DNA of 64,000 nucleotides from the NCBI RefSeq assembly GCF_028641065.1, contig NC_073403.1:24490001-24554000 (forward strand). Reading direction: 5' to 3'. This DNA comes from Leucoraja erinacea. Its lineage: Eukaryota. Below the pieces are notes generated by a model. It did no database searches. It worked only from the letters and a program-made list of their open reading frames with translations, and was not told the DNA's origin. This document shows, in pieces, positions 1,234 through 57,795 of the stretch; within the stretch, counting starts at the first letter, position 1; the number at the start of each line of letters is the position of its first letter. A program made the position numbers and the translations under genes.

Positions 1234-2292
1234 AAGCACCCGGAGAAAACCTGCACAGTCATAGGGAGAACTTGCAAACTCAGTGCAGGCAAGATCGAAC
1301 CCAGGTCTTTGGCGCTGTAAGGCAGCAACTCTACCGATGTGCCCCTGTGCCATCCCTATAAAATTGCACGTGGTCAGTTTCTCCCAGCTAATTCATGAGT
1401 GAGCTGATTGTTCCACATTCATGATCAGCCATGATCACAGTGAATGGCGGTGCTGGCTAGAAGGGCCGAATGGCCTACTCATGGACCCATTGTTTACTGT
1501 CTATTTTGAGAAACTACACTAGTTGACAGGGAAGGGTAAGGAAAAGAGGAATACTATCGGGCTATTATCCCAGAGGTGGGCAGGGAACTGAGCTGGGCTG
1601 GGTTGATCTGAGTAAATCCAAACAAATATGTTTCCCTCCACACCCTGTGGAAACAGGCTGACTACCAGGTGGCACCTTTGTCATCAGCAAGGAGCAGGAA
1701 CAAAGAGAGATCTGAGACATTTGAGGAGATGAGAAGAGTTAACATGGAGATCTGGAATCATATTGGAACGGAGATGACCTTACAAACTGACTACATATCA
1801 TCACAAGAATGGTTATTTCCACCAATGTAATATCTTTATCCTTGCCCTCCCTAAATTCATTGTAAGCTTAAACTGCCATCTGATTCCCACCATCTACCTC
1901 CAGAACTTTAAGGCAATCAAAACATCTTCTGCCCTTGCACAACAAAGGCCTAATTAGCCTGCTCACAAATCATACTTTATTAATTAATCTAATTAAGTTG
2001 CAACAGAATTTTAAAGTCCCAACCCTGTCATCAAATTCTTTCTATAACTCACCATCTCATAACTCTGTGATCTCTTCAGTCAAGTGTGTTTTATTGTCAT
2101 ATGCCCCAAAACGGAACAATTAAATTCTTATTGGTAGCTGCACGACAGATATATAAACTGATATGCTTTGCGTGACATTGGTGTGACAACATTTGGAATA
2201 TCTTGTGCATTTCCGGTTGCCATGCTGTATAGAAGATCTGAATGAGCTAGAGAGGGTGCAGAACTCTGTAAATACCATACGAAACAACAAAA

Positions 2293-2646
2293 TTAGAAGT
2301 AGATGGCGGCGCTGGCTTAACAGCTGTGGCCCACCTGCAGTCCGTCTGTTTTTTTTCTTTCGTTTTGTTCCTTGTCATGTTTTAGCTAATTTTGTTTTAT
2401 TAAGTTGTGTATGTATGTGGGTGGGGTGGGAGAAACAATGCTTTGGCCTCTTCCTTCGGGGGATGCAACTTTTTCTTCAGTCGTATCCCCCGTCTCCGTC
2501 TGCGCCGAGGCCTAATGGCGGAGCTGGCGGCAACGGAGCTGTAGCGGAGGCAGCAACGGCGGAGACCTGACTCGGCCCTGGAGCTGTGGCAGCAGCAGCA
2601 GCAGCGGAGACCTGACTCGGCACCGAAGCTGTAGCGGCGGCGGCGG

Positions 2647-2677
<31 letters not shown>

Positions 2678-3018
2678 GACCTGACTCGGCACCGAAGATG
2701 TAGCGGCGGCAGCGGCAGCGGCAGCGGAGACCCGACTCGGCCTCTGAGCTGTGGCGAGGCAGCGACCACCCGCGGAGTTTGAACCGTCGCCTCGGCGCAG
2801 AGGGAGAACAAAGAGGGAAGAGCCAGAGACTTTAAGATTTTGCCTTCCACCACAGTGAGGAGGTGTTTGGTGAACTCACTGTGGTGGATGTTAAATTTGT
2901 GTTGACTATGTGTTTTGTCATTTTTTAAAATTATATGTATGACTGCAGGGAAACAGAATTTCGTTCAGACCGAAAGGTCTGAATGACAATAAACAAATCT
3001 AATCTAATCTAATCTAAT
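2293..3018 (+). mobile_element. Structured non-autonomous retroposon with Rex1/Babar-type tail (copy 1)
   Basis: Hairpins at 2457-2492, 2846-2888 and 2961-2986; ends TGACAATAAA plus (TCTAA)n; shares domains with 4911-5633, 51378-51810 and 54333-55002. Confidence 0.7.
2530..2762 (+). repeat. GC-rich minisatellite with (GCA/GCG)n tracts inside the retroposon
   Basis: GCGGAGACCTGACTCGGC occurs four times, separated by variable GCN triplet runs. Confidence 0.9.
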
Positions 3019-3083
3019 ATAAAAAACAATCAATAATGGTGCAAAGACAAAAGCAATGCTCACAAGTCTATGCAATTTGAAGC

Positions 3084-3250
3084 TTAGCTGGAGGCAATGG
3101 TTATCGAACAGGAAATGTTGCTGCCAATTCGTACTGGTGTTCTGTTCATGAGGAAGTCATCAATCCAGTTTCTGAGGGACGGGCAGAGACTCAGTTCCCT
3201 GAGCTTGGTGACCAGTTTGGAGGGGATGATGGTGTTAAACACTGAGCTGT
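3084..3250 (-). pseudogene. Rex1/Babar LINE reverse transcriptase fragment (its 3' tail is probably at ~2070-2160)
   Basis: FNTIIPSKLVTKLRELSLCPSLRNWIDDFL..VRIG matches the Rex1/Babar RT motif. Confidence 0.8.
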
Positions 3251-3394
3251 TCTTTAAGGGATCCTTCAAGGAATTTGCATTTCACACCCTCAACCCCACT
3301 CCAGACATACACCACAATTTTAGTCTCTTGGACATCTGCATGGTATTCTAGCCTGGACGATTCGATCACATAAGATGCAATGTGAACTAGCCAA

Positions 3395-4445
3395 ACAGAC
3401 ACAAAATTGGCTTGGTGGAAGGAGTCAGAGGGTTGTTTTTCAGATTGGAGGCTTGTGACCGATGGTGTGTCATTAGTTTTTCATTGCTAAATCCCTGTTT
3501 TTTGGCATTTATTAACAGTTTGGATGAGAATGTAGGTGGTATGATTAATGAGTTCGCAGATGACACCAAAATTGATGGTGTAATGGACAGTGAAGTAGGT
3601 TACAACAGGGACTGGACCAAATGAAAAAGTGAGCAAAATAATTGCCGATGGGATTTAAGTCAGACAAGTACAAAGTGATGCTTTTTGAGACAGTGAACCT
3701 GAACAATAAAGTTGATGGCAGGACCCTGGAGAGTGTGGAACTGAGAGACCTTGGGATACAACCACATATTTCCTTGAAAGTGGCAACACAGTTATACAGG
3801 ATGATGAAGAAGGTGCACGGTGGGTTTGCCTTCATCGGTTGGGGCACAGAGTACAAGGGTTGAGATGTCCTGTTACAACTTTGTATGACAGAGGTGAGAC
3901 CAGATTTGGAGTATTGCATGCAGTTCTGGTTACCATGCTGTAAGAAAGACCTGATTGAAATAGAGAGGGTGCAGAAAAGATTAATTCACAAAGATGTTGC
4001 TGGAGGGCTTGAGTTGTAAGGAGAGACTGGATAGATGGGAACTTTTTCTCTGGAAATAAAGAGGCTGAAGGGTGACCTTATTGAAGCATTAAACCATGAA
4101 GGGCATTGTTTAGGTGGATGGTCACAGTTTTTTTCCCCAGAGTAGAGAATCTAAAACTAGAGGCCATAGGTTGGTGGTAAGAGAGGAAATATTTAAAGGC
4201 ATCTGAGGGGCATGTTTTTCACACTGAGAGTAGCAGATATGTGGATCGCTTTGCCAGAGAAAGTGGGAAAGACTGGAACAATTATGAAGAGATTATAAAA
4301 GCATTTGAATATATACATGGTTAGGAAAGGTTTAGAGGAACATGGCCAAAATGCAAGATAATGGGACTGGCTCAGTTTGGCACTTTAGTTGGCATGGATG
4401 AGTTGGACCCAAGAGCCCATTTCTGTGCTGTTTAACTCTATGACT
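3395..4445 (+). mobile_element. CR1 LINE, degenerate 3' RT region and tail
   Basis: FINSLDE..FADDTKI, RDLG, LEYCMQFW motifs with stops; CR1 tail ..GCCCATTTCTGTGCTGTTTAACTCTATGACT. Confidence 0.9.
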
Positions 4446-4517
4446 ATCTCACATTTGATTCACTGGGGTGGCACAGATTTGCAGCAGTAGAGTTGCTGCC
4501 TCACAGCACCAGAGACC

Positions 4518-6701
4518 CAGGGCCAGATTTAGGTGAAGAGAGGCTCTAGGCTATTCCATTTGTGTGGCCCCTGCCAATCCCCCACCCCCACGATGAGAGG
4601 AAGACGGAAGAGTCCACCTGATCCACCAATATGCAGCCGAGCGTGGCCAATGAGATAAGGGCTGGAAAGCTGAGCTTTTTATTTATTGCCAGTGTTAGTG
4701 TCGAGTTATCGCCTTAAAACGCTATTATTCTGAATTGGAGGGCAAGGAAAATTACTGAAGTGTTGTTTAGAGACTACATTGCGTTGTGACAGCATATATA
4801 AGAAAGGCCTATGATAGTGTCAAAAATATTATACACCAGGCCCGTATGAAACTTTTCAAAAAGGTGGGAGGCATGGCAGGATTACAAAAAATGTATGTGA
4901 AATAAGTGCAACAACAACAACAACAACAGACATTTATTATCACATACACCAATTGGTGTCGTGAAATTTGATTTGCCATTGCAGCACACAAATAAAAATA
5001 AGACACAACATTAAAGAATTTAACAATAAACATAAAAACATCTCCCACAATGGTACCCACTGTGAGGGAAGGCAGCAAAGTCCAGTCCTATCCCCTGTTC
5101 ACCCATGGTCGGGCCTATTGTGCCTCTGCAGTCGCCGCTTCAGCAGCCCGATGCTTCAGGCCCTCTCACCGGATGATGGAACTCCGGCATCAGAAGAACA
5201 CTCTCAGCGGCTTGGAGTGTCTGGAGCGGCCGCTTCCTCCCCGGAGACCACGGCTCCCGAAGACCACGGGCCGCGCTGGTCTGAGCTCCGACACTGACGA
5301 CCTCGGCGTGCGATTCCAGGCTCCACGATGTTTAAAGTACAGCGCGGCCCGCGGCTGGATGCCCGCAGCCACAGCTCCTCGGATGTTGGAGTCGGCGGTC
5401 TCAGCACTCTGGAGCCCACCGACCCAGGTAAGGCATCGCCCACTCCACGATGGTGCTTCAGTGCTCTGCCGCTGTTCTGGCAGGAAAACGCAAGGAAGGG
5501 GCGAAAATACGGCTCTGAGAAAAGCCGCATCTCCGACCAGGTAAGGACTGAGAAAAATAGTTTCCCCCTTTCCCCCCCCCCACCCCCCACACAAAAAAGA
5601 CTAGAAGACCTCGAAAACAAACACTTTTAACTCATAACTGCACGCAGCACATATCACAAGCACGAAGCTCAAAGACCCTTGCGGCCAGCTTAAGGGCCCT
5701 GGAAGCTCTGGTACATTCTGAGCCTTATTTTGGATCATTTTTGCGCCAAATTTATGGCCAATATTTCAGAAATAATTTTGCTTGAGTCAAGAGTAATGAG
5801 TAGTTGGAATGGGATGATTGGGGTCATTGTTGTATACATTTTTTTTAAATCAAGAATTGAAGCTGTCCTTGTTTTAATAATCAAGTTGTACTGTAAAATT
5901 TTATGTAAAATGTTATAAAGGAGCATGCAAACAATGCAAATAAAATACTGTAAGTTTTTGCAGTAAATAAAACCATTTTTTAGAAAATGTTTTGTGTGTT
6001 GATTTGATTGCGTGTTACTGTTCGACTGTGTTAGTGTGTGCACATTAAAAATATGATGCAAAATAAAAGTCACAAACTATGGAATACATATTTTTCAGTA
6101 TTGTTATCAAGGAAAAGAAAGCAGTTACAATTGTTTGATATTATTCATATGGAGGAGAAAATATAATTGCTCTAAAACCTACCTTAATTTTGCAATCTCA
6201 CTAAAGATAATCCCCCTTTCCCTCTCCCTCTCCTCCTTCCCCCTCCCCTCCCTCCCTCCATCTCTCCCTCCCTCCCCCGCAGCGAGGCTCCGACTCCCAC
6301 AGACAGCGAGCCCCCCCCGGGCCAGAGAAATGGGCACTCCGCAACGCAATATTCCACTACTTACCAGACACCTAGGATCCGCACGAGGCCCCCCCCCCCC
6401 CCCCCGCCCGGGCCCACCGGCCCGGAGAGACAACGTCGCCACTCCCGCTTCCCCCAACGCAATGGTCGCAATTTTTATCCCACTACTTCCAGTGGGCCAG
6501 AACCAGAAGTGGTAACCTAGCGATCAATTTTTTTTTTAGACACGAGGATTTTGACTTGGCTGAAAAAAACCCTTGGCTAGATTTTGAGGCCCTAGGCTTC
6601 AGCCTATGAAGCCTGTAGGTAAATCCGGCCCTGCTGAGGTCCCCCTAGATCTCGAGGCTCTAAGCTTAAACTTGTGAAGTTTATACGTAAATCCGGCCCT
6701 G
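4518..6701. mobile_element. Non-autonomous TIR DNA transposon, probably hAT
   Basis: Left end CAGGGCCAGATTTA; right ends TAAATCCGGCCCTG at 6620-6633 and 6688-6701; no transposase ORF; no TSD visible. Confidence 0.7.
4911..5633 (-). mobile_element. Structured non-autonomous retroposon (copy 2), nested in the hAT-like element
   Basis: TSD ATAAGTGCA (4902-4910) and ATAACTGCA (5634-5642); tail TGATAATAAA plus (GTT)n; shared hairpin domains. Confidence 0.75.
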
Positions 6702-7685
6702 ACTGTGGGTGCTGTCTGTATGGAGTTTTACGTTCTCCCTGTGACGGTGTGGATTTTCTCCGGGTGCTTCAATTTCCTCCCACATTCCAAAGGCGTATAG
6801 ATTTGTAAGTTAGTTGGCTTCAATAAAGATTATAACATTTTAGTTTACAGTGTGTTTGTTGGTTGGCATGGATTCGGTGGGCCGATGGGCCTATTTCCGT
6901 GCTGTATCTCAAAAGTTTAAAGTCACTCCAGCATTGGCTTGTATATGGAACAAACATACGGAGGAGGTAGTTGAGGCAGTTATTATCATAACGTTAGAAG
7001 CATTTGAACAGTTACATAGATAGGATAGGTTTAGAGGAATATTGGCCAAACGCGTGCAGGTGGGACTAGTGTAGATGGAGTATAGTTAGTGGAGTGGGCT
7101 AGTTGGGCCACTGTTTTCATGCTGTATGACTACGATGTTAATGTTGTAAAAAGTGGAGAAATCCTGCATGTTGAAAGGAAATAATTGCAAATAAGACAAC
7201 ATTCAATGCAGTGCCAAAAAATTCTCATCCAAATAACAGTTAGCTGATCTTTATTATGCCATGGATCTTCACCAGCCAGCTAAATTCACTTTATGTCAAA
7301 TGATAAAGCGTGAAGATATAAAGATGATACTGCATTAAACATGATCTACAAATAATTTTTAAATTGTAATCTTTTTATTATTGTCTTCATGCATATACAG
7401 TATGAAATGTTCCCTGTAATTATAACTCAGTCATGAATTGTTTGTTTTCTTGTTTTGCATAAACTATTTGGAACATTGAATTAAGTTTGACATAATGTTC
7501 CATTATTTTTTAAGATAGCAGTGATGGTTTATGATCACATTCAATAAATTTAATAGCTAAAAGCAATTACCAGACAAGGTTTATGATAATTCCGCCAATA
7601 TCAACAGAGCCTTACCAGAACCAGTTTAAGGAAAGTCATTCTCACAAGTAAGGTCACTTAAAAGTGATCTAAACACGAGAGATAA

Positions 7686-7980
7686 TTTAGTTTAGTTTAT
7701 TGTCACGCAGAGGAACAGTGAAAAGCTTTTTTGTTGCTTGCTATCCAGTCAGCGGAAAGACGATACTTGATTACAATCAAACCATCCGCAATGTGCAGAT
7801 AAGGATAAAGGGAATAACTTTTAGCACAAGATAAAGTCCAGTAAGGTCCAATAAAAGCTAAGACAAGGGTCTCCAATGAGGTAAATGGTAGGTCAGGACC
7901 GCTCTCTAGTTGGTAATAGGATGGTTCAGTTGCCTGATAACAGTTGGGAAGAAACTGTCCCTGAATCTGGACGTGTGCGC
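7686..7980 (-). mobile_element. Rex1/Babar-type 3' tail element (duplicated at ~12440-12740)
   Basis: Reverse strand encodes RFRDSFFPTVIRQLN, followed by a 3' UTR ending TGACAATAAA(CTAAA)n. Confidence 0.75.
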
Positions 7981-8174
7981 AAAGTGAAAGCCTCTGAGAG
8001 GCATGAAACCAATATCATTCTTACAGCAGACGGCACAGAAAATAAAGACACTAGGAACTGCAGATACTGTCTCACAAAAAAAGACACAAAGTGGGCTGGA
8101 GTAACTCAACGTGTCAGGCAGCATCTCTGGAGAACATGGATAGCTGATTTTTCAGGTCAGGACCCTTCTTCAAC

Positions 8175-9109
8175 TAGAATTTAGAGGATTGAGGGGGGAT
8201 CTGATAGAAACATACAAAGTTCTTAAGGGGTTGGACAGGCTAGTTGCAGGAAGATTGATCCCGATGTTGGGGAAGTCCAGAACAAGGGATCACAGTTTAA
8301 GAATAAAGGGGAAATCTTTTAGGACTGAGCTGAGAAAAACCTTTTTTTACACGACAGTGAACCTGAACAATAAAGTTGATGGCAGGACCCTGGAGAGTGT
8401 GGAACTGAGAGACCTTGGGATACAACCACATATTTCCTTGAAAGCGGCAACACAGTTATACAGGATGATGAAGAAGGTGTACGGTGGGTTTGCCTTCATC
8501 GGTTGGGGCACAGAGTACAAGGGTTGAGATGTCCTGTTACAACTTTGTATGACAGAGGTGAGACCAGATTTGGAGTATTGCATGCAGTTCTGGTTACCAT
8601 GCTGTAAGAAAGACCTGATTGAAATAGAGAGGGTGCAGAAAAGATTAATTCACAAAGATGTTGCTGGAGGGCTTGAGTTGTAAGGAGAGACTGGATAGAT
8701 GGGAACTTTTTCTCTGGAAATAAAGAGGCTGAAGGGTGACCTTATTGAAGCATTAAACCATGAAGGGCATTGTTTAGGTGGATGGTCACAGTTTTTTCCC
8801 CCAGAGTAGAGAATCTAAAACTACAGGCCATAGGTTGGTGGTAAGAGAGGAAATATTTAAAGGCATCTGAGGGGCATGTTTTTCACACTGAGAGTAGCAG
8901 ATATGTGGATCGCTTTGCCAGAGAAAGTGGGAAAGACTGGAACAATTATGAAGAGATTATAAAAGCATTTTAATATATACATGGTTAGGAAAGGTTTAGA
9001 GGAACATGGCCAAAATGCAAGATAATGGGACTGGCTCAGTTTGGCACTTTAGTTGGCATGGATGAGTTGGACCCAAGAGCCCATTTCTGTGCTGTTTAAC
9101 TCTATGACT
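8175..9109 (+). mobile_element. Chimeric CR1 created at the duplication junction (8352/8353)
   Basis: Frame RGDLIETYK..RKTFF jumps back to TVNLNNKVDGRTLESVELRDLG of the other CR1 copy. Confidence 0.85.
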
Positions 9110-9181
9110 ATCTCACATTTTATTCACTGGGGTGGCACAGATTTGCAGCAGTAGAGTTGCTGCCTCACAGCACCAGAGACC

Positions 9182-11456
9182 CAGGGCCAGATTTAGATGA
9201 AGAGAGGCTCTAGGCTATTCCATTTGTGTGGCCCCTGCCAATCCCCCACCCCCACGATGAGAGGAAGACGGAAGAGTCCACCTGATCCACCAATATGCAG
9301 CCGAGCGTGGCCAATGAGATAAGGGCTGGAAAGCTGAGCTTTTTATTTATTGCCAGTGTTAGTGTCGAGTTATCGCCTTAAAACGCTATTATTCTGAATT
9401 GGAGGGCAAAGAAAATTACTGAAGTGTTGTTTAGAGACTACAGTGCGTTGTGACAGCATATGTAAGAAAGGCCTATGACAGTGTCAAAAATATTATACAC
9501 CAGGCCCGTATGAAACTTTTCAAAAAGGTGGGAGGCATGGCAGGATTACAAAAAATGTATGTGAAATAAGTGCAACAACAACAACAACAACAGACATTTA
9601 TTATCACATACACCAATTGGTGTCGTGAAATTTGATTTGCCATTGCAGCACACAAATAAAAATAAGACACAACATTAAAGAATTTAACAATAAACATAAA
9701 AACATCTCCCACAATGGTACCCACTGTGAGGGAAGGCAGCAAAGTCCAGTCCTATCCCCTGTTCACCCATGGTTGTGCCTATTGAGGCCTCTGCAGTCGC
9801 CGCTTCGACAGCCCGATGCTTCAGGCCCTCTCACCGGATGATGGAACTCCGGCATCAGAAGAACACTCTCAGCGGCTTGGAGTGTCTGGAGCGGCCGCTT
9901 CCTCCCCGGAGACCACGGCTCCCGAAGACCACGGGCCGCGCTGGTCTGAGCTCCGACACTGGCGACCTCGGCGTGAGATTCCAGGCTCCACGATGTTTAA
10001 AGTACAGCGCGGCCCGCGGCTGGACGCCCGCAGCCACAGCTCCTCGGATGTTGGAGTCGGCGGTCTCAGCACTCTGGAGCCCACCGACCCAGGTAAGGCA
10101 TCGCCCACTCCACGATGGTGCTTCAGTGCTGTGCCGCTGTTCTGGCAGGAAAACGCGAGGAAGGGGCGAAAATACGGCTCTGAGAAAAGCCGCATCTCCG
10201 ACCAGGTAAGGACTGAGAAAAATAGTTTCCCCCTTTCCCCCCCCACCCCCCACATAAAAAAACTAGAAGACCTCGAAAGCAAACATTTTTAACTCATAAC
10301 TGCACGCAGCATATATCACAAGCATGAAGCTCAAAGACCCTTGCGGCCAGCTTAAGGGCCCTGGAAGCTCTGGTGCATTCTGAGCCTTATTTTGGATCAT
10401 TTTTGCGCCAAATTTATGGCCAATATTTCAGAAATAATTTTGCTTGAGTCAAGAGTAATGAGTGGTTGGACTGGGATGATTGGGGTCATTGTTGTATACA
10501 TTTTTTTTAAATCAAGAATTGAAGCTGTCCTTGTTTTAATAATCAAGTTGTACTGTAAAATGTTATGTAAAATGTTATAAAGGAGCATGCAAACAATGCA
10601 AATAAAATACTGTAAGTTTTTGCAGTAAATAAAACCGTTTTTTAGAAAATGTTTTGTGTGTTGATTTGATTGCGTGTTACTGTTCGACTGTGTTAGTGTG
10701 TGCACATTAAAAATATGATGCAAAATGAAAGTCGCAAACTATGGAATACATATTTTTCAGTATTGTTATCAAGGAAAAGAAAGCAGTTCCAATTGTTTGA
10801 TATTATTCATATGGAGGAGAAAATATAATTGCTCTAAAACCTACCTTAATTTTGCAATCTCACTAAAGATAATCCCCCTTTCCCTCTCCCTCTCCTCCTT
10901 CCCCCTCCCTCTCCCTCCCCCCCCTCTCTCTCCCTCCCACGCAGCGAGGCTCCGACTCCGCGCCACAGACACCGCAGCCCCCCCCCGGCCCAGAGAAATG
11001 GGCACTCCCGCAACGCAATATTCCACTACTTACCTGGAGTAGACACCTAGGATCTTCGGTAGACACGAGGCATCATGATTGTGTGGAGTGCAAATGGAGA
11101 TCTGAACCCGCCCGGGCCCACCGCGCACGTGCGGATAGACAGCGTCATTTTGCGTCGCCACTGCCTCACTGGCTTCCCCCAACTGCGCAGGAGCGGATGG
11201 TCGCAATTTTTATCCCCAAAACTTCCAGTGGGCCAGAACCAGAAGTGGTAACGCAGATAGCGATCCAATTTTTTTTTTTTTCTCAGGATTTTTTTTACTC
11301 TGGGGAAAAAAACACCTTGGCTGGAAGCCCCCTAGATTTTGAGGCCCTAGGCTTCAGCCTATGAAGCCTGTAGGTAAATCCGGCCCTGCTGAGGCCCCCC
11401 TAGATCTCGAGGCTCTAAGCTTAAACTTGTGAAGTTTATACGTAAATCCGGCCCTG
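9182..11456. mobile_element. Second copy of the hAT-like element
   Basis: Same TIRs and double right end as 4518-6701. Confidence 0.7.
9575..10295 (-). mobile_element. Duplicated copy of the structured retroposon at 4911-5633
   Basis: Near-identical sequence with the same TSD. Confidence 0.75.
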
Positions 11457-12933
11457 ACTATGGGTGCTGTCTGTATGGAGTTTTACGTTCTCCCTGTGAC
11501 GGTGTGGATTTTCTCCGGGTGCTTCAATTTCCTCCCACATTCCAAAGGCGTATAGATTTGTAAGTTAGTTGGCTTCAATAAAGATTATAACATTTTAGTA
11601 TACTGTGTGTTTGTTGGTTGGCATGGATTCGGTGGGTCGATGGGCCTATTTCCGTGCTGTATCTCAAAAGTTTAAAGTCACTCCAGCATTGGCTTGTATA
11701 AGGAACAAACATACGGAGGAGGTAGTTGAGGCAGTTATTATCATAACGTTAGAAGCATTTGAACAGTTACATAGATAGGATAGGTTTAGAGGAATATTGG
11801 CCAAACGTGTGCAGGTGGGACTAGTGTAGATGGAGTATAGTTAGTGGAGTGGGCTAGTTGGGCCACTGTTTTCATGCTGTATGACTACGACGTTAATGTT
11901 GTAAAAAGTGGAGAAATCCTGCATGTTGAAAGGAAATAATTGCAAATAAGACAACATTCAATGCAGTGCCAAAAAATTTGCATCCAAATAACAGTTAGCT
12001 GATCTTTATTATGCCATGGATCTTCACCAGCCAGCTAAATTCACTTTTTGTCAAATGATAAAGCGTGAAGATATAAAGATGATACTGCATTAAACATGAT
12101 CTACAAATAATTTTTAAATTGTAATCTTTTTATTATTGTCTTCATGCATATACAGTATGAAATGTTCCCTGTAATTATAACTCAGTCATGAATTGTTTGT
12201 TTTCTTGTTTTGCATAAACTATTTGGAACATTGAATTAAGTTTGACATAATGTTCCATTATTTTTTAAGATAGCAGTGATGGTTTATGATCACATTCAAT
12301 AAATTTAATAGCTAAAAGCAATTACCAGACAAGGTTTATGATAATTCCACCAATATCAACAGAGCCTTACCAGAACCAGTTTAAGGAAAGTCATTCTCAC
12401 AAGTAAGGTCACTTAAAAGTGATCTAAACACGAGAGATAGTTTAGTTTAGTTTATTGTCACGCATGCGGAGGAACAGTGAAAAGCTTTTTTGTTGCTTGC
12501 TATCCAGTCAGCGGAAAGACGATACTTGATTACAATCAAACCATCCGCAATGTGCAGATAAGGATAAAGGGAATAACTTATAGCACAAGATAAAGTCCAG
12601 TAAGGTCCAATAAAAGCTAAGACAAGGGTCTCCAATGAGGTAAATGGTAGGTCAGGACCGCTCTCTAGTTGGTAATAGGATGGTTCAGTTGCCTGATAAC
12701 AGTTGGGAAGAAACTGTCCCTGAATCTGGACGTGTGCGCAAAAGTCAAAGCCTCTGAGAGGCATGAAACCAATATCATTCTTACAGCAGATGGCACAGAA
12801 AATAAAGACACTAGGAACTGCAGATACTGTCTCACAAAAAAAGACACAAAGTGGGCTGGAGTAACTCAACGCGTCAGGCAGCATCTCTGGAGAACATGGA
12901 TAGCTGATTTTTCAGGTCAGGACCCTTCTTCAA

Positions 12934-13349
12934 CTAGAATTTAGAAGATTGAGGGGGGACCTTATAGAAACTTACAAAATTCTTAAGGGGTTGGACAGGC
13001 TAGTTGCAGGAAGATTGTTCCCGATGTTGGGGAAGTCCAGAACAAGGGGTCACAGTTTAAGGATAAAGGGGAAATCTTTTAGGACTGAGCTGAGAAAAAC
13101 ATTTTTTACACAGAGAGTGGTGAATCTCTGGAATTCTCTGCCACAGATTGTAGTTAAGGCCAGTTCATTGGCTATATTTAAGAGGAAGTTAGATGTGGCC
13201 CTTGTCGCTAAAGGGATCAGAGGGTGTGGAGAAAAAGCAGGTAGAGGATACTGAGTTGGATGATCAGCCATGATCATATTGAATGGCGGTGTAGGCTCGA
13301 AGGGCCGAATGGCCTACTCCTGCACCTATTTTCTATGTTTCTTTGTTTC
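12934..13349 (+). mobile_element. CR1 LINE 3' end, relatively young
   Basis: Open frame RGDLIETYKILKGLDR..SRTRGHSL..FFTQRVVNLWNSLP..FKRKLD; tail AAGGGCCGAATGGCCTACTCCTGCACC plus TTTCTATG repeats. Confidence 0.92.
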
Positions 13350-34462: not shown

Positions 34463-34734
34463 AAACTGCCAGAAATTCTGCCCAAAAGAGATGAGAGACT
34501 GTGAGAGAGAACGGGGAGAGGGTGGAGAATCAATTTTAGGCATTTTTCATTTTTTCTGCTGATCACAGCAATGGAGGAGGAAAGTCTACCCTGGCCTGGA
34601 TCTCACAGGGAGCAAATGAAGGGAGGGAGAAAAATACTGGGATGAGGTTTAATACTTACTGATGGGCCAAAGGGACTCCTGGGCTAGTACATGCTAGTAA
34701 TAGGGGGTCTTGTGGGCTGAAATTAGTGGTTTCA

Positions 34735-35300
34735 GGCAGGCCAAACAACACATTTAATTTAATTTCCAATTGCATTGCAGTTTCAAGCACAGGGCAGGCC
34801 AAATAGCTCATTGCATTTTCATTTCACTTCCATTGCCATTGCAGTTTCAAGCACAGGGCAGGCCAAGCCAAACAGCTGATTGCATTTCCACTTAATTTCC
34901 ATTGCCATTACACTTACAAGCATAGGGCAGGCTTAAGCCAAACAGCTGATTGCATTTTCATATTACTTCCATTGCCATTGCCATTTCAAGCAAAGGGCAG
35001 GCTCAAGCCAAACAGTTAATTGCATTTTCATATTACTTCCATTGCCATTGCACTTTCAAGCACAGGGCAGGCTCAAGCCAACCCGCTCATTGCATCTTCA
35101 CTACATTTCCATTGCCATTGCAGTTTCAAGCACATGGCAGGCTCAAGCCAAACAGCTCATTGCATTTTCATTTCATTTCCATTGCGGTTTCAAGCACAGG
35201 GCAGGCCCAAGCCAAACAGCTCATTGCATTTTCACTTCATTTCCATTGCCATTGCAGTTTCAAGCACAGGGCAGGCCAAACAACTCATTTCATTTTCATT
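34735..35300. repeat. ~60-70-bp tandem repeat inside Helitron B
   Basis: Unit GCAGG(CTCAAG)CCAAACAGCTCATTGCATTTTC..CCATTGCCATTGCAGTTTCAAGCACAGG, about 8-9 copies. Confidence 0.92.
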
Positions 35301-37315
35301 AAGGGCTAACTTATCATTTATTCACGTACGTTGCATACTCACAGTGTTCTGTAGTTTCCCAAGTCAGACACTGTCATGACCTCTCCCTCACCATCTTGCA
35401 GACTGAGCCAGACACTTCTGGGTTTTATAGACCCTCCCACCAGAAGGGGTGTGGCCTTCATGGCGGTGATTGACAGGAGAGAGAATCTCAAGGTTTTTTC
35501 CGGATAAAACCCACATGGTCACAGGGGGAAGATACAAACTCTGTGCAGACAGCATCTACAGTCAGGATTAAAACAGGGTCTCTGGCATTGTAAGGCAGCA
35601 GCTTTACTGCAACCCCACTATGCTGGGATATTGGAAATGCGGGAAAACAAGCTCATGTGCAGGTTTCTTGGAAGTCACCTGGGATACATGATCATGGGGG
35701 AGTGCCGCGACAGTCATAAGGCCAAAGTTGATAAGCCAGAATTAGGCAATTCGGCCCATCAAGTCTACACCATTCAATTATGGCTGATCTATCTCTCCCT
35801 CTAAACTCCATTCTCTTGCCTTCTTCCCATAACCCCTAACACCCGGAATGGTAAGATGGATTCTAAAAAATCCATTGTGGGCTTTGCTGGCAGACTGGTG
35901 AGAGGGAGGAGGGTTGGCGAGGAATCGGTGGAGCCGTTAGTAGCAGAGTGAGACCCTGGAGCAACCCTGTGAAGAGAGACTGTTGGAGCAGCCTAGTGCA
36001 GATCGAGACCATAAGACCATAACATGGGAGTCCTGGAATGTGTTGCCAGGGACGGTGGTCGAAGCAGATAGATTAATGGTATTTTAAAGTCTTTGGGATA
36101 GGCATATGCATATTCATTGAATGGAAGAATATGAGTTATGTGCAGGTAGACAAGTGATTACTTTCAAACCACGTTCGGCATAGACATTGTTGGCCCAAGG
36201 GCCTGTTCTTGTGTGTAGGAATGAACTGCAGATGCTGGTTTAAACCGTAGACACAAAAACCCATAGTAACACAGCGGGACAGGCAGCATCTCTAGAGAGA
36301 AGGAATTAACTCCCCCTCTGTGTTTCATCTGGTCCAGTGCGAAATCTCCTCACGGTATGTTTACTTTGAAGACTTTCTCCTGCTCTCTGCGACGAGAGTT
36401 CTACAGCTACCTCTCTCGCTGCTCCCCCTCTGTAGTTGTTCATGTGTTGTATGCAATGTTCTAGTGTATCTACTACCATCAAATGCCATGCCAGATTCAA
36501 GAGTAAAGGAAGCATCCAAATGAAAGCTGTGGATGGCTAAGTCATGATTCACGAGTCAGTAAACATTCTGTGGAGAGCAGCTGTTGCTGTGGATTTATTG
36601 GCAGTCCAAGGGAATAGTGGTGGTTTGAAAAAGTGCGACTGATAAAATCTTGTCTTCCCACAGGCAACCGAGCAGCCAGTTTAGCAAGTGAAACAAAAAC
36701 GATGGAGGTATTCAGTACTGGAACAACACTTTTCAGCTTCAGTGAATTAAAGCTTACAGGAGCAAACAGTTTATTTAGTTAACTAAAAAGAGAATTGCTG
36801 GTGATGAGTTCACTTTTACCATTAACATCCATCACTATTGATCCCGATCCCATAGATTTCATTCAAAAAGGAGCCCAGACACTCGTAATGATCTGCAATA
36901 AACTAAAAAATACTAATACATACTCTATGATGGCCAATTTTCTGCTCTCTCCATTCAAGCTTACACTGAGAACAAAACTAAACATCGCTGTGTCTCTGGA
37001 ATCAATCTAAGCAGCCATAAGGAAGAGGACGATTTCCTCAAAACAAGCTTGGTTGATAATTGCCCAATCATTCATAATCCAGCAGATGGCAAGTTTAAAA
37101 ATAATACTTACATTGCTTGACTTCAAATTCATGTTTTCTAAGTAAAAGTCACTCAATTTGTAACCAAACTCACAAAACCAAATTCAAATTTAAAGCAAAT
37201 GCTAAGAAATCTGAATTCTGTAGCTGAAAATCTCTGAATTTTTATAAACATTGAATTCGTTGAAAGCTGTGCAACAAATACATAAAATTATATTGTAAAT
37301 AACAATGTGGACACA

Positions 37316-39062
37316 TCTGTCTGTCTGTCTGTCTGTCCGTCCGTCCGTCTGTCCATCCGTCCATCCTTACGTCCGCCTATCTATCTATCTATTCCCATGT
37401 GATCCTGAAATTACGGCAAAATGATACACGATTGCGGTAAAACTTTTTGCACCACCTTACTCACCGTTATCCTGTGGTGGTCTGTATCAAGTTTCGTTCA
37501 GATTTATGTTATATTTTACAAGTAAATCGTAATTTTTTACATTAGAAATTTACGGTAAAGAAAAAAATAGCAACTTTCAAGCCCAGCTTGCAACAAAGTT
37601 GCAACAAAGTTGCAATTGAGGAACACTCAGTCCTTCCAGCAAGTTTTTAGCTGAACAGGAAGGGGAGGGGGCAATTGCATTATTTTTTAAAGTCCTCGAA
37701 GCAAGGGGAGAGGGAGGCAGTGCTGGGTGATACACCCCTGCACAGTTGGGGGCTATGGGTGAGTGCTGGAATATGGGGGGACAGGTGAGTGGTGGAATAT
37801 TGCATTGGGGAACGGCTGCGTTGGGGAATGGGTGAGTGGTGGAATATTGCAATGGGGACGGGTTGCGTTGGGGGACCAGGACTCCTGTGAGGGCTATGGG
37901 TTAGTGGTTGAATTTTTATTGGGGCAATGGGTTGCTTTGGGGGTCCAGGACTCCCGTGTGACCAACGGGTCCCACTTGGTCTAGTATGTTGCTAAAACTC
38001 TCATCTTGTTTCTATCTATCTATGTTTATGATCCCATGTGATTATGGACCTATGCCAAAATGGTACACGATAGCGCTAAAATGTTTGCACCACCTTACTC
38101 ACCATTTTGTTCAGATTGATGTTATATTTTACAAGTTGTTCATAATTTTTAACTTTAGAAATTCAAAGGTTAAGATGAATTTAGCAGCTATTGGCATCAA
38201 GAACCATTGCTGGACAACTTGCAACTTTGTTGCAATCCAGGAACACTCAGTCCTTCCAGCAAGTTTTTAGCTCAACGGGAGGAGGAGGGGGCAATTGCAT
38301 TCTTTTTTAAAGTTCTCAAAGTCAGAGAAGGACAGTTGGGGGCTATGGGTGAGTGCTGGAATATGGGGGGAACAGATAAGTGGTGGAATATTGCATTGGA
38401 GAAACCAGTTGCATTGGGGGGCCAGGCCTCCCGTGTGGGCTATGATTAAGTGGTGGAATATTGCGTTGTGGAAATGGGTTGCATTGGGAGACCAGGCCTC
38501 CCATGTGACAGGGACCCAATGGTTCCCTCTGGGTCTAGTATATATTACTAAAACTCTCATCTTGTTTGTTTGTTTGTATATATGTGTGTGTGGAAGAGTG
38601 TGTGTTCCCGAAAATCAGCCAAAACAGTACATGATAGCTTCACAATTTTTGGCCCACCTTAATCACCATTGTCCTGCTAGCAAGTTTAGTTCAAAAGGAT
38701 ATTATATTTTACAAGTTATTGACATTTTAAATGTTAAAAAATCACGTTTCCATTTGCTCTGCCTGTCAGCCACGTTCGACGTCACAATGACGTCACAATG
38801 GGCTCCCAAATTTCTATTTTTTAAAATCGCCATGTTTTTCTTTCGTGTGTACTTGCCTGGCCTCACAACGGGGACCCAACAGCTCAACGGATAAGTTTCC
38901 TTCTGCTTTACAAATGCCTCCATGGGTCTTCTATTCACCTTATTAACTTTAATTTAATTTCAGCCGTCAACGGCACAACTTTGAACGTGACAGCCGCGCA
39001 TGCACAATTTGGTGGAATAATGCGTTGGAGGAGCGCGCCCAATGGGATCACACTTGGTTTAG
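37316..39062 (+). mobile_element. Chain of three non-autonomous Helitrons (37316-37984, 37985-38538, 38539-39062)
   Basis: Units end GACC(C)AA(C/T)GG..CCC.CT.GGTCTAG (third degenerate, CACTTGGTTTAG); units 2 and 3 start TAT..CTAAAACTCTCATCTTGTTT plus a microsatellite. Confidence 0.75.
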
Positions 39063-39112: not shown

Positions 39113-40292
39113 AATTTCAGTTCAGTTTCAGTTCAGTTTATTGTCATGTGGCCCGAGGTATAGTGAAGAGATTTTTTTGCGTGTTAACCAGTCAGCAGAA
39201 AGGCAATACATGATTACAATCAAGCCATTTGCAGTGTTTAGATACATAAAGGAACAACATTTAGTGTAAGGTAAAGCCAATAAAGTCCAAGGGTCACCAA
39301 TGAGGTAGATGGTAGTAGTAGGACTGTTCTCTAGTTGTGTTAGGATGATTCAGTTGCCTGATAACAGCTGGGAAAAACTATTCCTGAATCTGGAGGTGTG
39401 CGTTTTCATACGTCTATCCCTTTTGCCCGTTGGGAGAGGGAAGAAGAAAGAGTGACCAGGGTGCAGCTCATTCTTGATTATGCTGTTGGCCTTGCCGAAG
39501 CAGCGTGAGGTATAAATGGAGTCAATGAAAGGGAGGTTGGTTTGTGTGATGGTCTAGGCTGTGTCCACAATTCTCTGCAATTTCTTGGGGTCTTGGATGG
39601 AGCTGTTCCCAAACCAAGATGTGATGCATCCTGATAAAGTGTTTTCTGTAGCACATCTGTAGAAGTTGGCGAGAGTTGGTGGGGGCATGCCGAACTTCCA
39701 AAGCCATCTGAGGAAGAAGAGGTGTTGGTGTGCTTTCTTGATCGTTGCTTCAATATGGGTGGTCCAGGAGAAGCTGCTGGTGATAGTGACTTGTATGAAT
39801 TCGAATTTTCAACAATCTCTATTTTGGTGCCATCAACGCAAACTGGGGTATGTGTATCGCTTTGCATCGTGAAGTCGATCACAGTTTCCTTCGTCCTGCT
39901 GACATTGAGAGAAAGGTTGTTTTCTCAACACCAGGACACAAGATTCTCGATCTCCTTCCTGTACTCCGTCTCATCCTTATTTGATATCAATCCCACAATG
40001 GTGATGTTGTCTGCGAATTTGAAAATTTAATTAGATTTACATGGCTGCACAGTGGTACGTGTACAAGGAGTAAAGAAGCGGGCTGAGAAGGCATCCTTGT
40101 GGAGCACTTGCGTTAAGGATTATCGTAGAGGGTGATTTGTCCCCTATCCTCACTGATTGGGGTCCGTTGATCAGGAAGTCGAGGTACCAGTTGCAGAGAT
40201 TTATGCTAACTCCAAGTTCCGCGAGTTTGGTGATAAGCTTGGATGGTATAATAGTATTAAAGGCAAGGTCTATGAATAGGAGTCTGATGTTC
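39113..40292 (-). mobile_element. Rex1/Babar LINE, RT C-terminal part and tail, degenerate
   Basis: RLLFIDLAFNTIIPSKLITKL..QSVRIG..PQGCLLSPLLYSLYT..KFAD; tail TGACAATAAA(CTGAA)n. Confidence 0.92.
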
Positions 40293-44890: not shown

Positions 44891-44988
44891 ATATGACAAG
44901 ATACCTATATGTATATTGATCAAATATTAATATCTTGACAATACCTTAAAATCAAATAAAACTGGGCAATCAAACTGACATAAATTGT

Positions 44989-45122
44989 TCAAGAAGGAAC
45001 TGCAGATGCTGGAAGATCGAAGGTACACAAAATTGCTGGAGAAACTCAGCGGGTGCAGCAGCATCTATGGAGCGAAGAAAATAGGCGACGTTTCGGGTCG
45101 AAATCCTTCTTCAGACTGATAA
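44989..45122 (-). mobile_element. Solo Penelope pLTR insertion
   Basis: 12-bp TSD GACATAAATTGT at 44977-44988 and 45123-45134. Confidence 0.88.
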
Positions 45123-45184
45123 GACATAAATTGTGCTCTTATTTTCAAATAATCCTGCCTTTTCCTAGACTAGGCAGAATATGT

Positions 45185-48899: not shown

Positions 48900-49094
48900 T
48901 GTAGATTGGCTATTTCCTACTAACCAATTGTAGTGCTTGTTAGTAGTTGCTCCGCCTAATATGCGATTTATATTACCAAGAGCTTCCCTACGTAATTCAG
49001 TCTGAGTAGCTGCTCATTACTGCAATGTCCTGCAGAGCAAGATTTTAATAAACATATGTTATATCTTGCCGTGCGTACGACTCGACTCATTACA
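48900..49094 (+). repeat. Third LTR, inverted relative to the host element
   Basis: TGTAGATTGG..AATAAA..CATTACA is the reverse complement of the flanking LTRs. Confidence 0.95.
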
Positions 49095-49120
49095 TGGTGT
49101 CAGAAGTGGGATTTGAACCC
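49095..49120 (-). other. 26-nt copy of the 3' end of a mature tRNA-Leu, including CCA
   Basis: Reverse complement GGGTTCAAATCCCACTTCTGACACCA versus vertebrate tRNA-Leu(CAA) ..GGGTTCGAATCCCACTTCTGACACCA (recalled), one CpG-type mismatch. Confidence 0.8.
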
Positions 49121-49299
49121 AGGATGTGGATTCGTACCGCACACGTGCCGGACTGATCAGTAGGCCACCTTTAGGTATGGTGATTTTGTGTGACTATCTA
49201 TACTTCCCCATATCGTTATTAAATTTCCGGCTACTTCCCCATATGCGTTATTTAAGTTCCGGCTACTATATTGTTTAGCCACCATGTTTCAAGTCGCTA

Positions 49300-49652
49300 A
49301 TAAAACATTCTATCGGCTTGCCAACTTGTTGCATACGAGCATAAAACTTGGTACGTTCAATGATATAGTTCAAGGGGAGTCACACAACTGTCTAAACTTT
49401 GCAAGTAGGACAGCAGGTCATCAATCGTTTCTGCAGGCACTTGGAACAGCAGGCTCAAAAGTAAAACAATCCGTATGTTTCATTGCCTCAGGACCAGCCA
49501 GGTTCAGTAACACAGAAGCACGTACATCTGGAGGAACGTTGCGATGAACAATGCAAACCTAGTGAATGTAGTCGCGCTCGAAAAGGTGCCAGCATTCAGC
49601 AATGTCAGAATCAAAGATCAGAGGACTAGGACGGCAAGACGAGTTTGCTATG
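49300..49652 (-). pseudogene. Gypsy gag N-terminal remnant
   Basis: Manual translation: RPSPLIFDSDIAECWHLFERDYIH*VCIVHRNVPPDVRASVLLNLAGPEAMKHTDCFTF. Confidence 0.7.
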
Positions 49653-50753: not shown

Positions 50754-51377
50754 ATGACAACCTGTTCCTCAAGACTATATTTGGGCTTCATTGGGACAAT
50801 GTGGAAGCCAACAAATTGCTATATTTGAGCCATTCTAGCCATATTAGCACATCTGCTGCTGTCTGTGTTTAGTTTGCACGTTCCCTCTGTGTCAGTGTGT
50901 ATTTCTCTCGGGTGCTCTAGTAATATTTATGTGCCATTTGGCTAACAGATATCCTACAATTTTTCCCTCTCCACAGTCATTATCAGATGTTTCCAAAGAT
51001 GTGCTGGTTAGTAAGCCAGCTATATTGGAGTCGGATGTTAGGCAACTGGAAACTCAGGATCACCATAACAGAAAGGGTTTCAGTAAATTTATAAGCTGAT
51101 CTTGGTTTCTCTACTGTCGAAGGAACACATGGATTCAGCTGCTTGCACGCTGTCTATTTCTTGTATTTTGCCAAATGGAAGGAAAATAATGCAAATCAGT
51201 TGCTGAAAAGCACCCAGAAAACAAAGCAATAAGATTTCCTTAATCAATTTCTTCTTGAGTGCATCAGTATCTCCAAATGAAATGCCTACTGCGAGCATGA
51301 CTAATAATGCTGCTCATTAAAAATCAGTGAATGCAACTTCAGTAACTAACAGCTTTCTCAACATGTATGCAACAATA

Positions 51378-51810
51378 GAGGGAAACCGTTTTTCAGTCAC
51401 TTACCTGGACGGAGATGCGTCTTTTCTCTGTGTCGCATCTTCGCCCCTCTCACGGCCTACCAACTGGATTGGCATGGCCTTTTCGACTGGAGACCGGCCC
51501 AGAGCTTCAGCAGCAGGCGCGGTGCGGAATTACCATCACAGAGCCTGGGATCCTTGTCGTGGATCGCCACTGTTGGTGCTCCGATCGCGGGGCATGATGA
51601 CTTTAACATCGCAGAGCCTGGGCTCTTTTGGCGAGGATCCCTAGTGTTGGTGCTCCATCCAGCGGGGCCTATAGACTTCAGAAGCCGTGGTCTCTGGTAA
51701 GAAGCGACCGATTCAGGAACTCCAAGCTGCAGAGTGTGTTCCGATCCATCCCGACATCGGAGTTTCGATCATCCCGGCAAGAGGGCCCGTACATCAAGCC
51801 GTCCGTAGCG
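51378..51810 (+). mobile_element. Structured non-autonomous retroposon (copy 3, 3' end lost)
   Basis: GGGAAAC..ACTTACCTGG, hairpin 51410-51443, CGGCCTAC; CpG-rich body. Confidence 0.6.
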
Positions 51811-52550
51811 GTGACTGCCAAGCATGGGGGGGTGAGAGTAGTGTCGTTGGGGCATGTTGGTTGGCATGAGCAAGTTGGACCAAAGGGCCTGTTTCCATGC
51901 TGTAAACTCAATTACTTTATTGGAAAACCAAGGCCTTATTTAATATTTGGATCAACATATACACATGTTGGTATTCCCCTTCAACAGGGGTAGACATGAA
52001 TAGGTTTTCTGGCTGATGTTTGGAACGTGATTGAAATAGGGATTTATACCATAGGTTAGGCTGCAGTTCATACCTCGGTGACTGCCAATCACCACCACCC
52101 CCCCCCCCCCCCCCCCCGGACACTTATTATTATTTATTCAAATCGTTTGCTATGTCGCTCTTCAAGGGAGATGCTAAATGCATTTTGTTGTCTCTGTACT
52201 GTACACTGACAATGACAATTAAAATTGAATCTGAATCTGAATCTGAGTTGAGTTGAGTTCCAATCTTCCAACGTACTTCCGCTGCAGATGCTGGACTTTT
52301 TCTCTGTAACGGTAACGTTACAATGTTGGAAAACTTTTTCCAAAGTCTCCAAAGTTCCATGTATAGCTTGATGGTACTTCATGTACAGCTTGATCTGATT
52401 AGATTACACACAAATTAAAGCTTTGGTACGCATGACAATAATAAACCAATACCAAAACCTCTGCATGTAACCAATTATCCAAATCAATCGTGTTCTTTTT
52501 CTTTCAATATCAGAATCCTCAAGCAACACTCTCAGGAGGATGTGGAAGGC

Positions 52551-53301
52551 CAGGGGTTCCCAACTTTTTTCGGCCTGTTTACCCTTGGCAGCTTTTCAAA
52601 AGTAAATTGATCCCCACCCTGTTTTGCTCAGTAATTTGAGTTTGCACAGTAGAGAGCATGCTGACCGGTTGCATCGTGGCTTGGTACGGCAACTTGAGTG
52701 CCCTGGAGAGGAAAAGACTACAAAAAGTAGTAAACACTGCCCAGTCCATCATCGGCTCTGATCATCCTTCCATCGAGGGGATTTATCGCAGTCGCTGCCT
52801 CAAAAAGGCTGGCAGTATCATTACAGACCCACACCATCCTGGCCACACATTCATCTCCCTGCTACCTTCAGGTAGAAGATACAGGAGCCTGAAGACTGCA
52901 CAACCAGGTTCAGGAATAGATACTTCCCCACAGCCATCAGCCTATTAAACCTGACTCGGACAAAACTCTGATTATTAATAACCAATTATCTGTTATTTGC
53001 ACTTTATCATTTATTTATTCATATGTGTATATATTTAAATTATAGTATATGGACACATTGATCTGTTTTGTAGTAAATGCCTACTATGTTCTGTGTGCTG
53101 AAGCAAAGCAAGAATTTCATTGTCCTATCAGGGACACATGACAATAAACTCACTTGAACTTGACTTGAACTTTAACTCACTTCTACCATAATAAAGCAAC
53201 AGACAAAGGGGAAATTTTAAAATACTGTTTTTAACAAATCCAGAATTAAGAAACTCCTACCCTCTGGGTAGGCAAAATTCACCCCCGGTTGGGAACCCTT
53301 G
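52551..53301. mobile_element. hAT-like MITE containing a LINE insertion
   Basis: Ends CAGGGGTTCCCAAC and GTTGGGAACCCTTG; no clear TSD. Confidence 0.6.
52646..53172 (+). mobile_element. Rex1/Babar LINE 3' end
   Basis: ESMLTGCIVAWYGN..RKRLQKVVNTAQSIIG..DPHHPGH..LLPSGRRYRSL; tail TGACAATAAA plus (CTTGA)n. Confidence 0.92.
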
Positions 53302-54332: not shown

Positions 54333-55002
54333 GGGTGCGGTTGGGGGAAACGCTTTCTAATCTCTTACTTCGACGGAGATGCAATTTTTTTGTATCGTAT
54401 CTCCATCCACACTGCGGCCTAACATCGAGGAGTTGGCAGCCTTTGCTGGAGACCGATTTTGAGAGCTCCACCCCGGTCGCCTGCAGACTTACCATCGCGG
54501 AGCTTGCGATCCCTTTGCCAGGGGTCGACCTCGGATTTCCAACTGTCGGTGCTTGCGAATTTAACATCAAGGAGCCCGCGGTCTCTGGTCGCAGGGGTTT
54601 TTGATCGCCCCGACACGGGAGTTTCGATCGCCCCGACGCGGAAGTTTCAATCGCCCCGAAGCGGGAGTTTCAATCACCCCCCGACGCGGGAGCTTTGACT
54701 GCCCTGATGCGGGGGCTTCGACCACCGGCTGTGGGAACTTCAATCGCCTCGACGGATGGTTTGACTGCCCTGACCACGGGAGAATAAAGAGGAAGAAGCT
54801 TGGACTTTTTTGCCTTCCATCACAGTGAGGAATGTGAGAATCCGCTGTGGTGGATGTTTATGTTAACTTTTATGTAGTGTGTCTTTGTTTTAATATATGG
54901 ATGTATGGTAATTTACACATTTGGCACATAAATTTGGAACATTTGGCACCTAAATTGGCACATGTGACAATAAAAGGCCTTTGAAACCTTTGAATCCTTT
55001 GA
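54333..55002 (+). mobile_element. Structured non-autonomous retroposon (copy 4) with an internal ~23-bp CpG-rich tandem repeat
   Basis: Hairpin 54372-54407; GCCTTCCATCACAGTG..CTGTGGTGGATG domain; TGACAATAAA plus short-repeat tail; ATCGCCCCGACGCGGGAGTTTC-like repeats at ~54600-54780. Confidence 0.72.
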
Positions 55003-57394: not shown

Positions 57395-57795
57395 AAAACC
57401 CATGGATGCTGGAAACCCATCGCATCACATATTCTCCATCCTGCCATCTGGGAAGAGGTACAGGAGCATTAGCTGCAAAACCAGCAGGATGTTCCTCAGC
57501 TTCTTCCCGCAGGCTATAAGACTGCTAAACGGACTTTGCCCCCTGCCAAAGTATCGCGCACCAACCACCAACCTGGACACACTGCAGCAGAGCCACTGTC
57601 GTGCCGCTGCCGATCGGAACGTCTGTTGATGTTTAGTAGAGTGTTAATTTGTTCATGATATATGTATTTTTATTTCTATTTATTTTTAATGCACACTGAA
57701 TGGACACTGGTTGAGCAATGTTTTTTTGTTTCCTCTGGGTATGTGAATACTCAGGAAATGACAATAAAGATATACAATACAATACAATACAATAC
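57395..57795 (+). mobile_element. Rex1/Babar LINE 3' end
   Basis: PSHHIFSILPSGKRYRSI..SFFPQAIRLLN; tail TGACAATAAA plus (ATACA)n. Confidence 0.85.

Follow-up and report, generated by a model that had tools for sequence, protein, structure and literature searches.

ORF-less retroposons derived from a LINE, the bipartite LINEs, are described for RIME/Ingi, NARTc/L1Tc, RTE-N, Bov-A, Vingi and R2 derivatives. In the excerpted account (PMC5786205) only RTE, Ingi, Vingi and R2 are reported as their sources; three of these four LINE clades bear ribozymes, and that account leaves open whether the bias is real. The element described here belongs to a multicopy family of about 700 bases, without protein-coding capacity and with a Rex1/Babar-type tail, found in a 64,000-nucleotide stretch of Leucoraja erinacea DNA (the window). 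It resembles the bipartite LINEs in having no ORF and no Pol III head, in its LINE 3′ end and, judging by sequence, in a LINE-like 5′ end and likely Pol II transcription. As the excerpt defines such elements, the coding region is indeed absent, and LINE derivation of the 3′ end extends over about 65-70 bp of tail. The skate element differs in its Rex1/Babar-type partner, in the variable tandem repeats of its middle and in that no ribozyme was found; moreover, the 5′ part of the bipartite LINEs covered there comes from the 5′ UTR of the same LINE, whereas for the skate element a LINE-derived head is a proposal only.

Rex1-type tails are also carried by SINEs, namely SINE2-5_NV with Rex1-24_NV, and the salmonid SlmI, HpaI and OS-SINE1 with RSg-1; according to the excerpt of PMC3747384 they share with our element a Rex1-type 3′ end for mobilisation in trans but have tRNA or 5S heads. 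The chondrichthyan SINEs HE1, SacSINE1 and CmiSINEs come from the same animal group and are likewise non-autonomous and of high copy number, but their tRNA heads, V/Deu/CORE domains and HER1/CR1/L2 tails, as partly described in PMC5499810 and PMC3747384, set them apart (the former, in excerpt, gives its SINEs tRNA heads and L2 tails). Bird SINEs, as far as the excerpts of PMC7245038 and PMC5786205 extend, have a similar GC-rich 5′ part without a small-RNA match but carry bipartite RTE sequences, whereas the skate element has a Rex1 tail and a YY1-like start. According to the excerpt of PMC6274825, which describes no ORF-less derivative, the 3′ UTR of Rex1 itself is conserved and ends in an oligonucleotide repeat. 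Neither the element nor an ORF-less Rex1 derivative was described in the literature that we searched, whose scope excluded most subscription journals, Repbase Reports and supplements. Our comparison takes RSg-1 to be a member of the Rex1 clade and was made without Dfam or Repbase; by this comparison, the family is probably a new variant, an ORF-less retroposon that has a LINE tail and a Rex1 partner and no Pol III head. Automated skate repeat libraries may already contain the family, nameless or as LINE/Rex-Babar.

Primate SVA offers a parallel of another kind, being composite, ORF-less and transcribed by Pol II, with a GC-rich variable tandem repeat mid-element and frequent 5′ truncation. We liken these features to those of the skate element, with no homology implied; SVA is mobilised by L1 and ends in a poly(A) tail, whereas the skate element ends in a structured Rex1-type tail. 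We consider it probable, from its sequence, that the skate element is an ORF-less retroposon transcribed by Pol II and copied in trans by Rex1.

Copies, boundaries and abundance

A preliminary description of this DNA had claimed four independent related elements, and all were found at about the positions given there (Table 1). Their common order runs from a G-run/GAAAC motif and hairpin 1 through a CpG-rich middle to hairpin 2 and a Rex1-type tail. The motif, described as GGGAAAC in every copy, is exact in three of the four but reads GGGAGAAAC in copy 1; copy 3 lacks its 3′ half, as had been noted, with neither hairpin 2 nor tail present. Hairpin 1 with its flanks is homologous in all six copy pairs and the hairpin-2 region in all three, each with a score that 0 of 200 shuffles reach. 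The three complete copies measure 668-724 bp (SINEBase sets its limit at about 700 bp, PMC3531059), and intact elements may exceed this length. For CpG, the observed/expected ratio of the copies (0.78-0.97) is higher than that of the window (0.43). A fifth copy is 97.7% identical to copy 2. Copy 2 lies inside a 4.7-kb tandem segmental duplication, 95.7% identical between 3689-8359 and 8353-13119.

Table 1. Coordinates of the element copies, their parts and the Rex1-type LINE fragments in the window
Feature	Position	Strand	Remarks
Copy 1	2301..3022	+	Sole long-headed copy; probably complete; 5′ end within 2291-2301 (depth rise and contig)
Copy 1, head	2301..2427	+	YY1-like motif AGATGGCGGC at 2301-2310, T-rich stretch, G-run
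Copy 1, motif and hairpin 1	2428..2492	+	GGGAGAAAC; arms 2457-2466 and 2483-2492
Copy 1, middle	2516..2795	+	CpG-rich, tandem units; arrays 2528-2725; array missing from other copies
Copy 1, purine-rich stretch and hairpin 2	2800..2888	+	14-bp stem at 2846-2888
Copy 1, Rex1-type tail	2940..3022	+	Hairpin 2961-2986; TGACAATAAA 2984-2993; (AATCT)n 2996-3022
Copy 2	4910..5633	-	Shorter 5′ end than copy 1; (TTG)n tail
Copy 2, hairpins	hairpin 1 about 5535-5502; hairpin 2 about 5069-5041	-	
Copy 2, target duplication, left copy	4902..4909	.	8 bp, one mismatch; empty-site joints 4890>5634, 4890>5707
Copy 2, target duplication, right copy	5634..5641	.	8 bp
Duplicate of copy 2 (fifth copy)	about 9574..10297	-	Within tandem segmental duplication; non-independent insertion
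Copy 3	51377..51818	+	Motif, hairpin 1 (51410-51443), copy-2-homologous middle; then tail fragment of another repeat
Copy 4	54335..55002	+	Motif, hairpin 1 (54375-54404), hairpin 2 (54816-54854)
Copy 4, repeats	23-bp tandem array 54604-54722; 22-bp repeat internal to tail; 9-bp terminal repeat	+	
Rex1/Babar-type LINE 3′ fragment	52640..53172	+	ORF2 end, 3′ UTR, tail; candidate partner type
Second Rex1-type family, 3′ fragment	57400..57795	+	Tail unalignable to element past TGACAATAAA
Third Rex1-type family, 3′ fragment	7696..8000	-	Further at about 12451-12750 and 39115-39450

Copy 1 had been placed from 2293 onwards, but a start near 2301 is more likely: a contig from another copy agrees with 2301-2414 and is unlike the window further upstream, and the boundary near 2301 depends on this single contig. 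The 5′ ends of the four copies differ, with about 130, 65, 8 and 3 bases before the GAAAC motif, and the heads of copies 1 and 2 are unalignable (z 0.2). Copies 3 (51377) and 4 (54335) both start within about 8 bases of the motif, which may mean that truncations cluster there or that the element has a second natural 5′ end.

Empty sites of copy 2 appear in all three DNA runs as contig joints from 4890, to 5634 in one run and to 5707 in two; copy 2 is therefore bounded at 4910-5633, lies inside another repeat and has an 8-bp target duplication. No convincing target duplication was found around copies 1, 3 and 4, so that it is clear in only one copy of four. Hallmarks of target-primed non-LTR elements are thus seen in that duplication with its empty sites, in repeat-ended tails (3/3) and in four distinct 5′ ends. 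The repeat that hosts copy 2 occupies about 4620-4909 and 5634-5750 or beyond; it is of high copy number and its empty form occurs in the three runs. The 3′ end of another repeat, which we take to be a CR1/HER1-type tail, follows copy 3 (51823-51916) and precedes copy 4 (54050-54334); after copy 3 it could represent a deletion or a tail swap.

Contigs of four of 24 listed runs were compared with 2150-5750; abundance was assessed as contig depth in the three DNA runs, which have three species labels and come from three studies, and run X18, presumed to be RNA, is given no weight for expression. In each of the three, depth sums to 99-266 in the flank bin, to 69,000-140,000 in the bin of the copy-1 head and to 0.7-1.3 million in that of hairpin 2; the bins of copy 1 from the head through hairpin 1 to the first middle bin range over 62,000-470,000, and single contigs at the element have a depth of about 20-50. 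Summed contig depth, which is not a copy number, points to thousands of copies or more.

Other repeats share the window. An open frame of 364 codons at 44984-46078 (+) matches GIY-YIG weakly (E 0.0013) and likely belongs to a Penelope-type element. Two related elements with 70-bp tandem arrays and common flanks (34734-35483 and 62153-62672) form one repeat family, and tandem copies at 37377-38744, with 47- and 70-bp internal repeats, belong to a helitron-like or other repeat. A MITE-like element at 62901-63208 has 73-bp terminal inverted repeats that are 97% identical, and a repeat at 48385-49941 with direct and inverted copies of about 200 bp is possibly of DIRS type.

Tails and the Rex1 LINEs of the window

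The ending TGA(C/T)AATAAA plus a copy-specific short repeat terminates all three complete copies, in agreement with the preliminary description. The same architecture of hairpin, TGA(C/T)AATAAA and short repeat is found in the Rex1-type fragments of the window. The proposed likeness to Rex1/Babar tails stands for copies 1 and 2, whose ends can be aligned with that of the Rex1 fragment at 53.1 kb (z 6.4 and 4.8; 65-70 bases, 61-66% identical; 0/200 shuffles each), but not for copy 4, whose internally duplicated tail gives z 1.2; no copy's tail aligns to the Rex1-type tail at 57.7 kb. Covariance models of hairpins 1 and 2 recovered in the window only their own five and four training copies, none of them in the Rex1 3′ UTRs there. 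For this reason hairpin 2 is not a general feature of Rex1 3′ UTRs and, as far as sequence comparison goes, sharing with the LINE is demonstrated for the last ~70 bases only.

The ORF2 part of the candidate partner (52640-52897) is 87-89% identical to little skate proteins and to an ORF with PF00078 (RT) and PF09004. Half of its eight matches are named skate proteins; the fragment alone has no Pfam match, and we assign it to Rex1/Babar by its C-terminus and tail. Rex1 ORF2 sequence also forms the end of an isoform of a named skate EF-hand protein. Another Rex1-type tail, at 52163-52190, forms a small hairpin whose 5′ arm GGAGATGC is identical to that of hairpin 1; the hairpin-1 model omits the site, and the match is probably due to chance.

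A search with Rex1 protein found no match in viral contigs and two loci in prokaryote genome contigs, in one contaminated assembly (G001). This 17.8-Mb bacterial assembly has 156 LINE reverse transcriptase matches and many microsatellites (L002-L007) and must therefore contain heavy contamination with animal DNA. An AATAAA-type end and terminal repeat lie downstream of a Rex1-like ORF2 in three of six loci there; the upstream DNA of L002-L004, L006 and L007 has no intact Rex1 5′ end, and copy 4 has no match in the assembly.

If the copies were 5′-truncated pieces of an autonomous Rex1-type LINE with a long, structured, GC-rich 3′ UTR, there would be no separate element. We find this improbable, even though the 5′ ends of the copies vary and the summed depth of copy 2 drops from 122,000 to 12,000 in the 3′ to 5′ direction (run X1; parts cannot be ranked by contig depth). 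All three complete copies are alike in length, no ORF lies upstream of any of the four, and both hairpin 1 and hairpin 2 are missing from the Rex1 3′ UTRs of the window, which span about 200-260 bp. Copy 1, moreover, stops at a promoter-like motif, and the match of the other contig stops there too. P0010-P0014 correspond to the 5′ end of copy 2 and continue upstream for about 90 bases more, so that copy 2 is probably truncated; in P0010 the extension is pyrimidine-rich and of low complexity, not polymerase-like, which also speaks against such a LINE as the source. The N-terminus of P0010 reads M-V-A, like a CpG-decayed YY1 motif, and its fit to the copy-1 head is weak (0.64-0.68 versus a mean of 0.48-0.52).

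Hairpins and middle region

Hairpin 1 folds better than shuffles in all four copies (folding z -4.6, -4.3, -3.3 and -2.2), against a background of 150 random 70-nt windows in which 6.7% reach z ≤ -2 and 2.7% reach -3.3. In copy 1, the 14-bp stem of hairpin 2 is perfect and the tail hairpin has 11 bp and a GAAA loop, both exactly where they had been located. Conservation of these two among copies was partly borne out: hairpin 2 is strong in two of three copies (z -6.0 and -2.6) but weak in copy 2 (z -1.2), and the tail hairpin is strong in one of three (z -5.1) but not in the others (z -0.8 and -1.1). The sense strand folds more stably than the antisense in just five of seven hairpins. The compensatory change claimed for hairpin 1 is present but not significant, with double-sided changes at 2 of 11 pairs, a count that 65 of 500 shuffles reach; hairpin 2 has them at 1 of 12 pairs (408/500). 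Pairing is retained in 93-96% of cells for hairpins 1 and 2, among four independent copies only, and 12 of 500 shuffles reach the covariation score of hairpin 1 in an alignment that includes the duplicate copy. Conserved RNA structure of the hairpins is plausible, not proven.

The hairpin patterns had no match in viral contigs, and their single match in metagenome contigs, within a bacterial gene, was set aside as chance. We also rejected a ribozyme head: a relaxed HDV-like descriptor did no better than shuffles, and the hammerhead core is absent in all five copies.

The middles, thought to be dissimilar and exchangeable, are diverged homologues in copies 2, 3 and 4, and copy 1 alone differs. 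Copies 2 and 3 align at z=19 (63% over 350 columns), copies 3 and 4 at z=11.5 and copies 2 and 4 at z=3.8, each with 0/200 shuffles, while the three pairs that involve copy 1 are at chance level (z 1.2-1.8). Variation takes the form of tandem duplication, with units of 45-69 bp in copy 1 and of 23 bp in copy 4, and an internal repeat in copy 3; contigs without the copy-1 array exist (joints 2589>2756 and 2590>2759). An 11-base word is common to the copy-1 tandem unit (2554-2564) and the end of Rex1 ORF2 (52949-52959), possibly by chance.

These results bear on the idea that the copies are loose chimeras, i.e., unrelated GC-rich sequences that independently gained a module of hairpin 2 and tail, or 3′ read-through copies. 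Such an origin would fit the unrelated middle of copy 1, the variation of tails among copies and a hairpin-2 bin about 8x deeper than the copy-1 head bins (run X1). We nevertheless judge it quite improbable, as hairpin 1 and its flanks are homologous throughout and three middles are homologous. An unrelated predicted ORF, P0009, follows copy 2 colinearly all the way from GAAAC motif to tail and is therefore an independent copy with identical layout, which argues in the same direction.

Head, mode of copying and meaning

According to the excerpt of PMC5381506, L1 5′ UTRs open with a YY1 site, CAAGATGGC, and contain CpG islands, tandem duplications and T-rich stretches. Copy 1 begins with AGATGGCGGC, followed by T-rich sequence and then the CpG-rich tandem-repeat region; the likeness of its head is one of design, and the YY1-like start is present in one of four copies only. 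By analogy with the L1 5′ ends of that excerpt, the head is not featureless, having a YY1-like motif at the copy 1 start.

Absence of tRNA A/B boxes and of an ORF had been reported from the letters. Indeed, no tRNA gene and no sense-strand A+B pair was found, by a scan that detects tRNA-SINE heads elsewhere in the window, but copy 2 has open frames of 130-180 codons in several frames, none of them conserved between copies. One sense frame of the element had no relative in a protein search; later protein searches with element frames returned two matches in one and only self in another, and the ESM Atlas gave no usable match to them. An A-box-like 12-mer lies at 2304 in copy 1, with no B box after it. 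The sense strand has 4-9 runs of at least four T per copy, the first, a T8 run, lying 48 bases into copy 1. As T-runs stop Pol III, their presence throughout the sense strand makes transcription by this polymerase unlikely. Rfam at gathering score had no match in the whole window, and at E≤5 two stretches gave three and six weak matches, all far under gathering score, with none to tRNA, 5S, 7SL or snRNA. A ten-base likeness of copy 3 to the U1 snRNA 5′ end was discarded: there is no U1 match and the motif varies among copies.

Against the definition of SINEs in PMC3531059, the element is non-autonomous without a conserved ORF and has a LINE-shared tail (two of three tails align), but the sequence gives no sign of an internal Pol III promoter or small-RNA head, be it an A+B box pair, a tRNA or an Rfam match. 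The SINE-like retroposon of the preliminary description therefore holds as a multicopy, non-autonomous element with a Rex1/Babar-type tail and conserved hairpins, but not as a Pol III SINE in the strict sense, which it probably is not. The alternative of a genuine superfamily of Pol III SINEs, its head taken from an unknown small RNA, is very unlikely, since the size of ~700 bp, the LINE-type tail, the conserved hairpins, the A-box-like motif and the precedents in excerpted accounts of Rex1-tailed tRNA SINEs (SINE2-5_NV with Rex1-24_NV, PMC3747384) and of bird SINEs with GC-rich heads of unknown origin (PMC7245038) are offset by the missing B box, the T-runs from the first T8 onwards and the lack of any small-RNA match.

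We hypothesize instead, with Pol II transcription and copying by Rex1 as the preferred reading, the following course of events. The YY1-like, CpG-rich head would act as an internal Pol II promoter. The copying enzyme is likely borrowed from Rex1, because the element ends in a Rex1/Babar LINE tail: the ORF2 protein of Rex1 would bind to the stem-loop of the tail and prime reverse transcription at a nicked target. Copying would often halt short of the 5′ end, giving truncated copies and leaving a short target duplication. Hairpins 1 and 2 may be retained as RNA signals, whereas the GC-rich middle would grow and shrink by tandem duplication, so that subfamilies diverge; the subfamily of copy 1 may have had its middle replaced. 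With the usual SINE promoter missing, the element has the appearance of a LINE-derived hitch-hiker. Within the reading of Pol II transcription and Rex1 copying, the most likely origin, at about even odds, is from the 5′ UTR and 3′ end of a Rex1 LINE whose coding part was lost; a captured non-LINE head, the main alternative, is somewhat less probable.

A bolder reading, which we put forward as doubtful, is that of a batoid superfamily of Pol II composite retroposons in thousands of copies, an SVA-like parasite of Rex1/Babar. Hairpins 1 and 2 would then be functional domains of its own, not of LINE origin, and subfamilies would keep pace with different active partners by exchanging their GC-rich tandem-repeat middles and Rex1 tails.

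A ribozyme-free Rex1 case would bear on whether the clade bias of bipartite LINEs, as raised in the excerpt of PMC5786205, is real. A composite Pol II element, if true, would be a fish parallel of SVA. Repeat-derived sequence occurs in the predicted proteins P0003, P0009 and P0010. The family matters for annotation because its sequence leaks into predicted proteins (P0009 and P0010), and such an abundant family would spread CpG-rich, promoter-like sequence across skate genomes.
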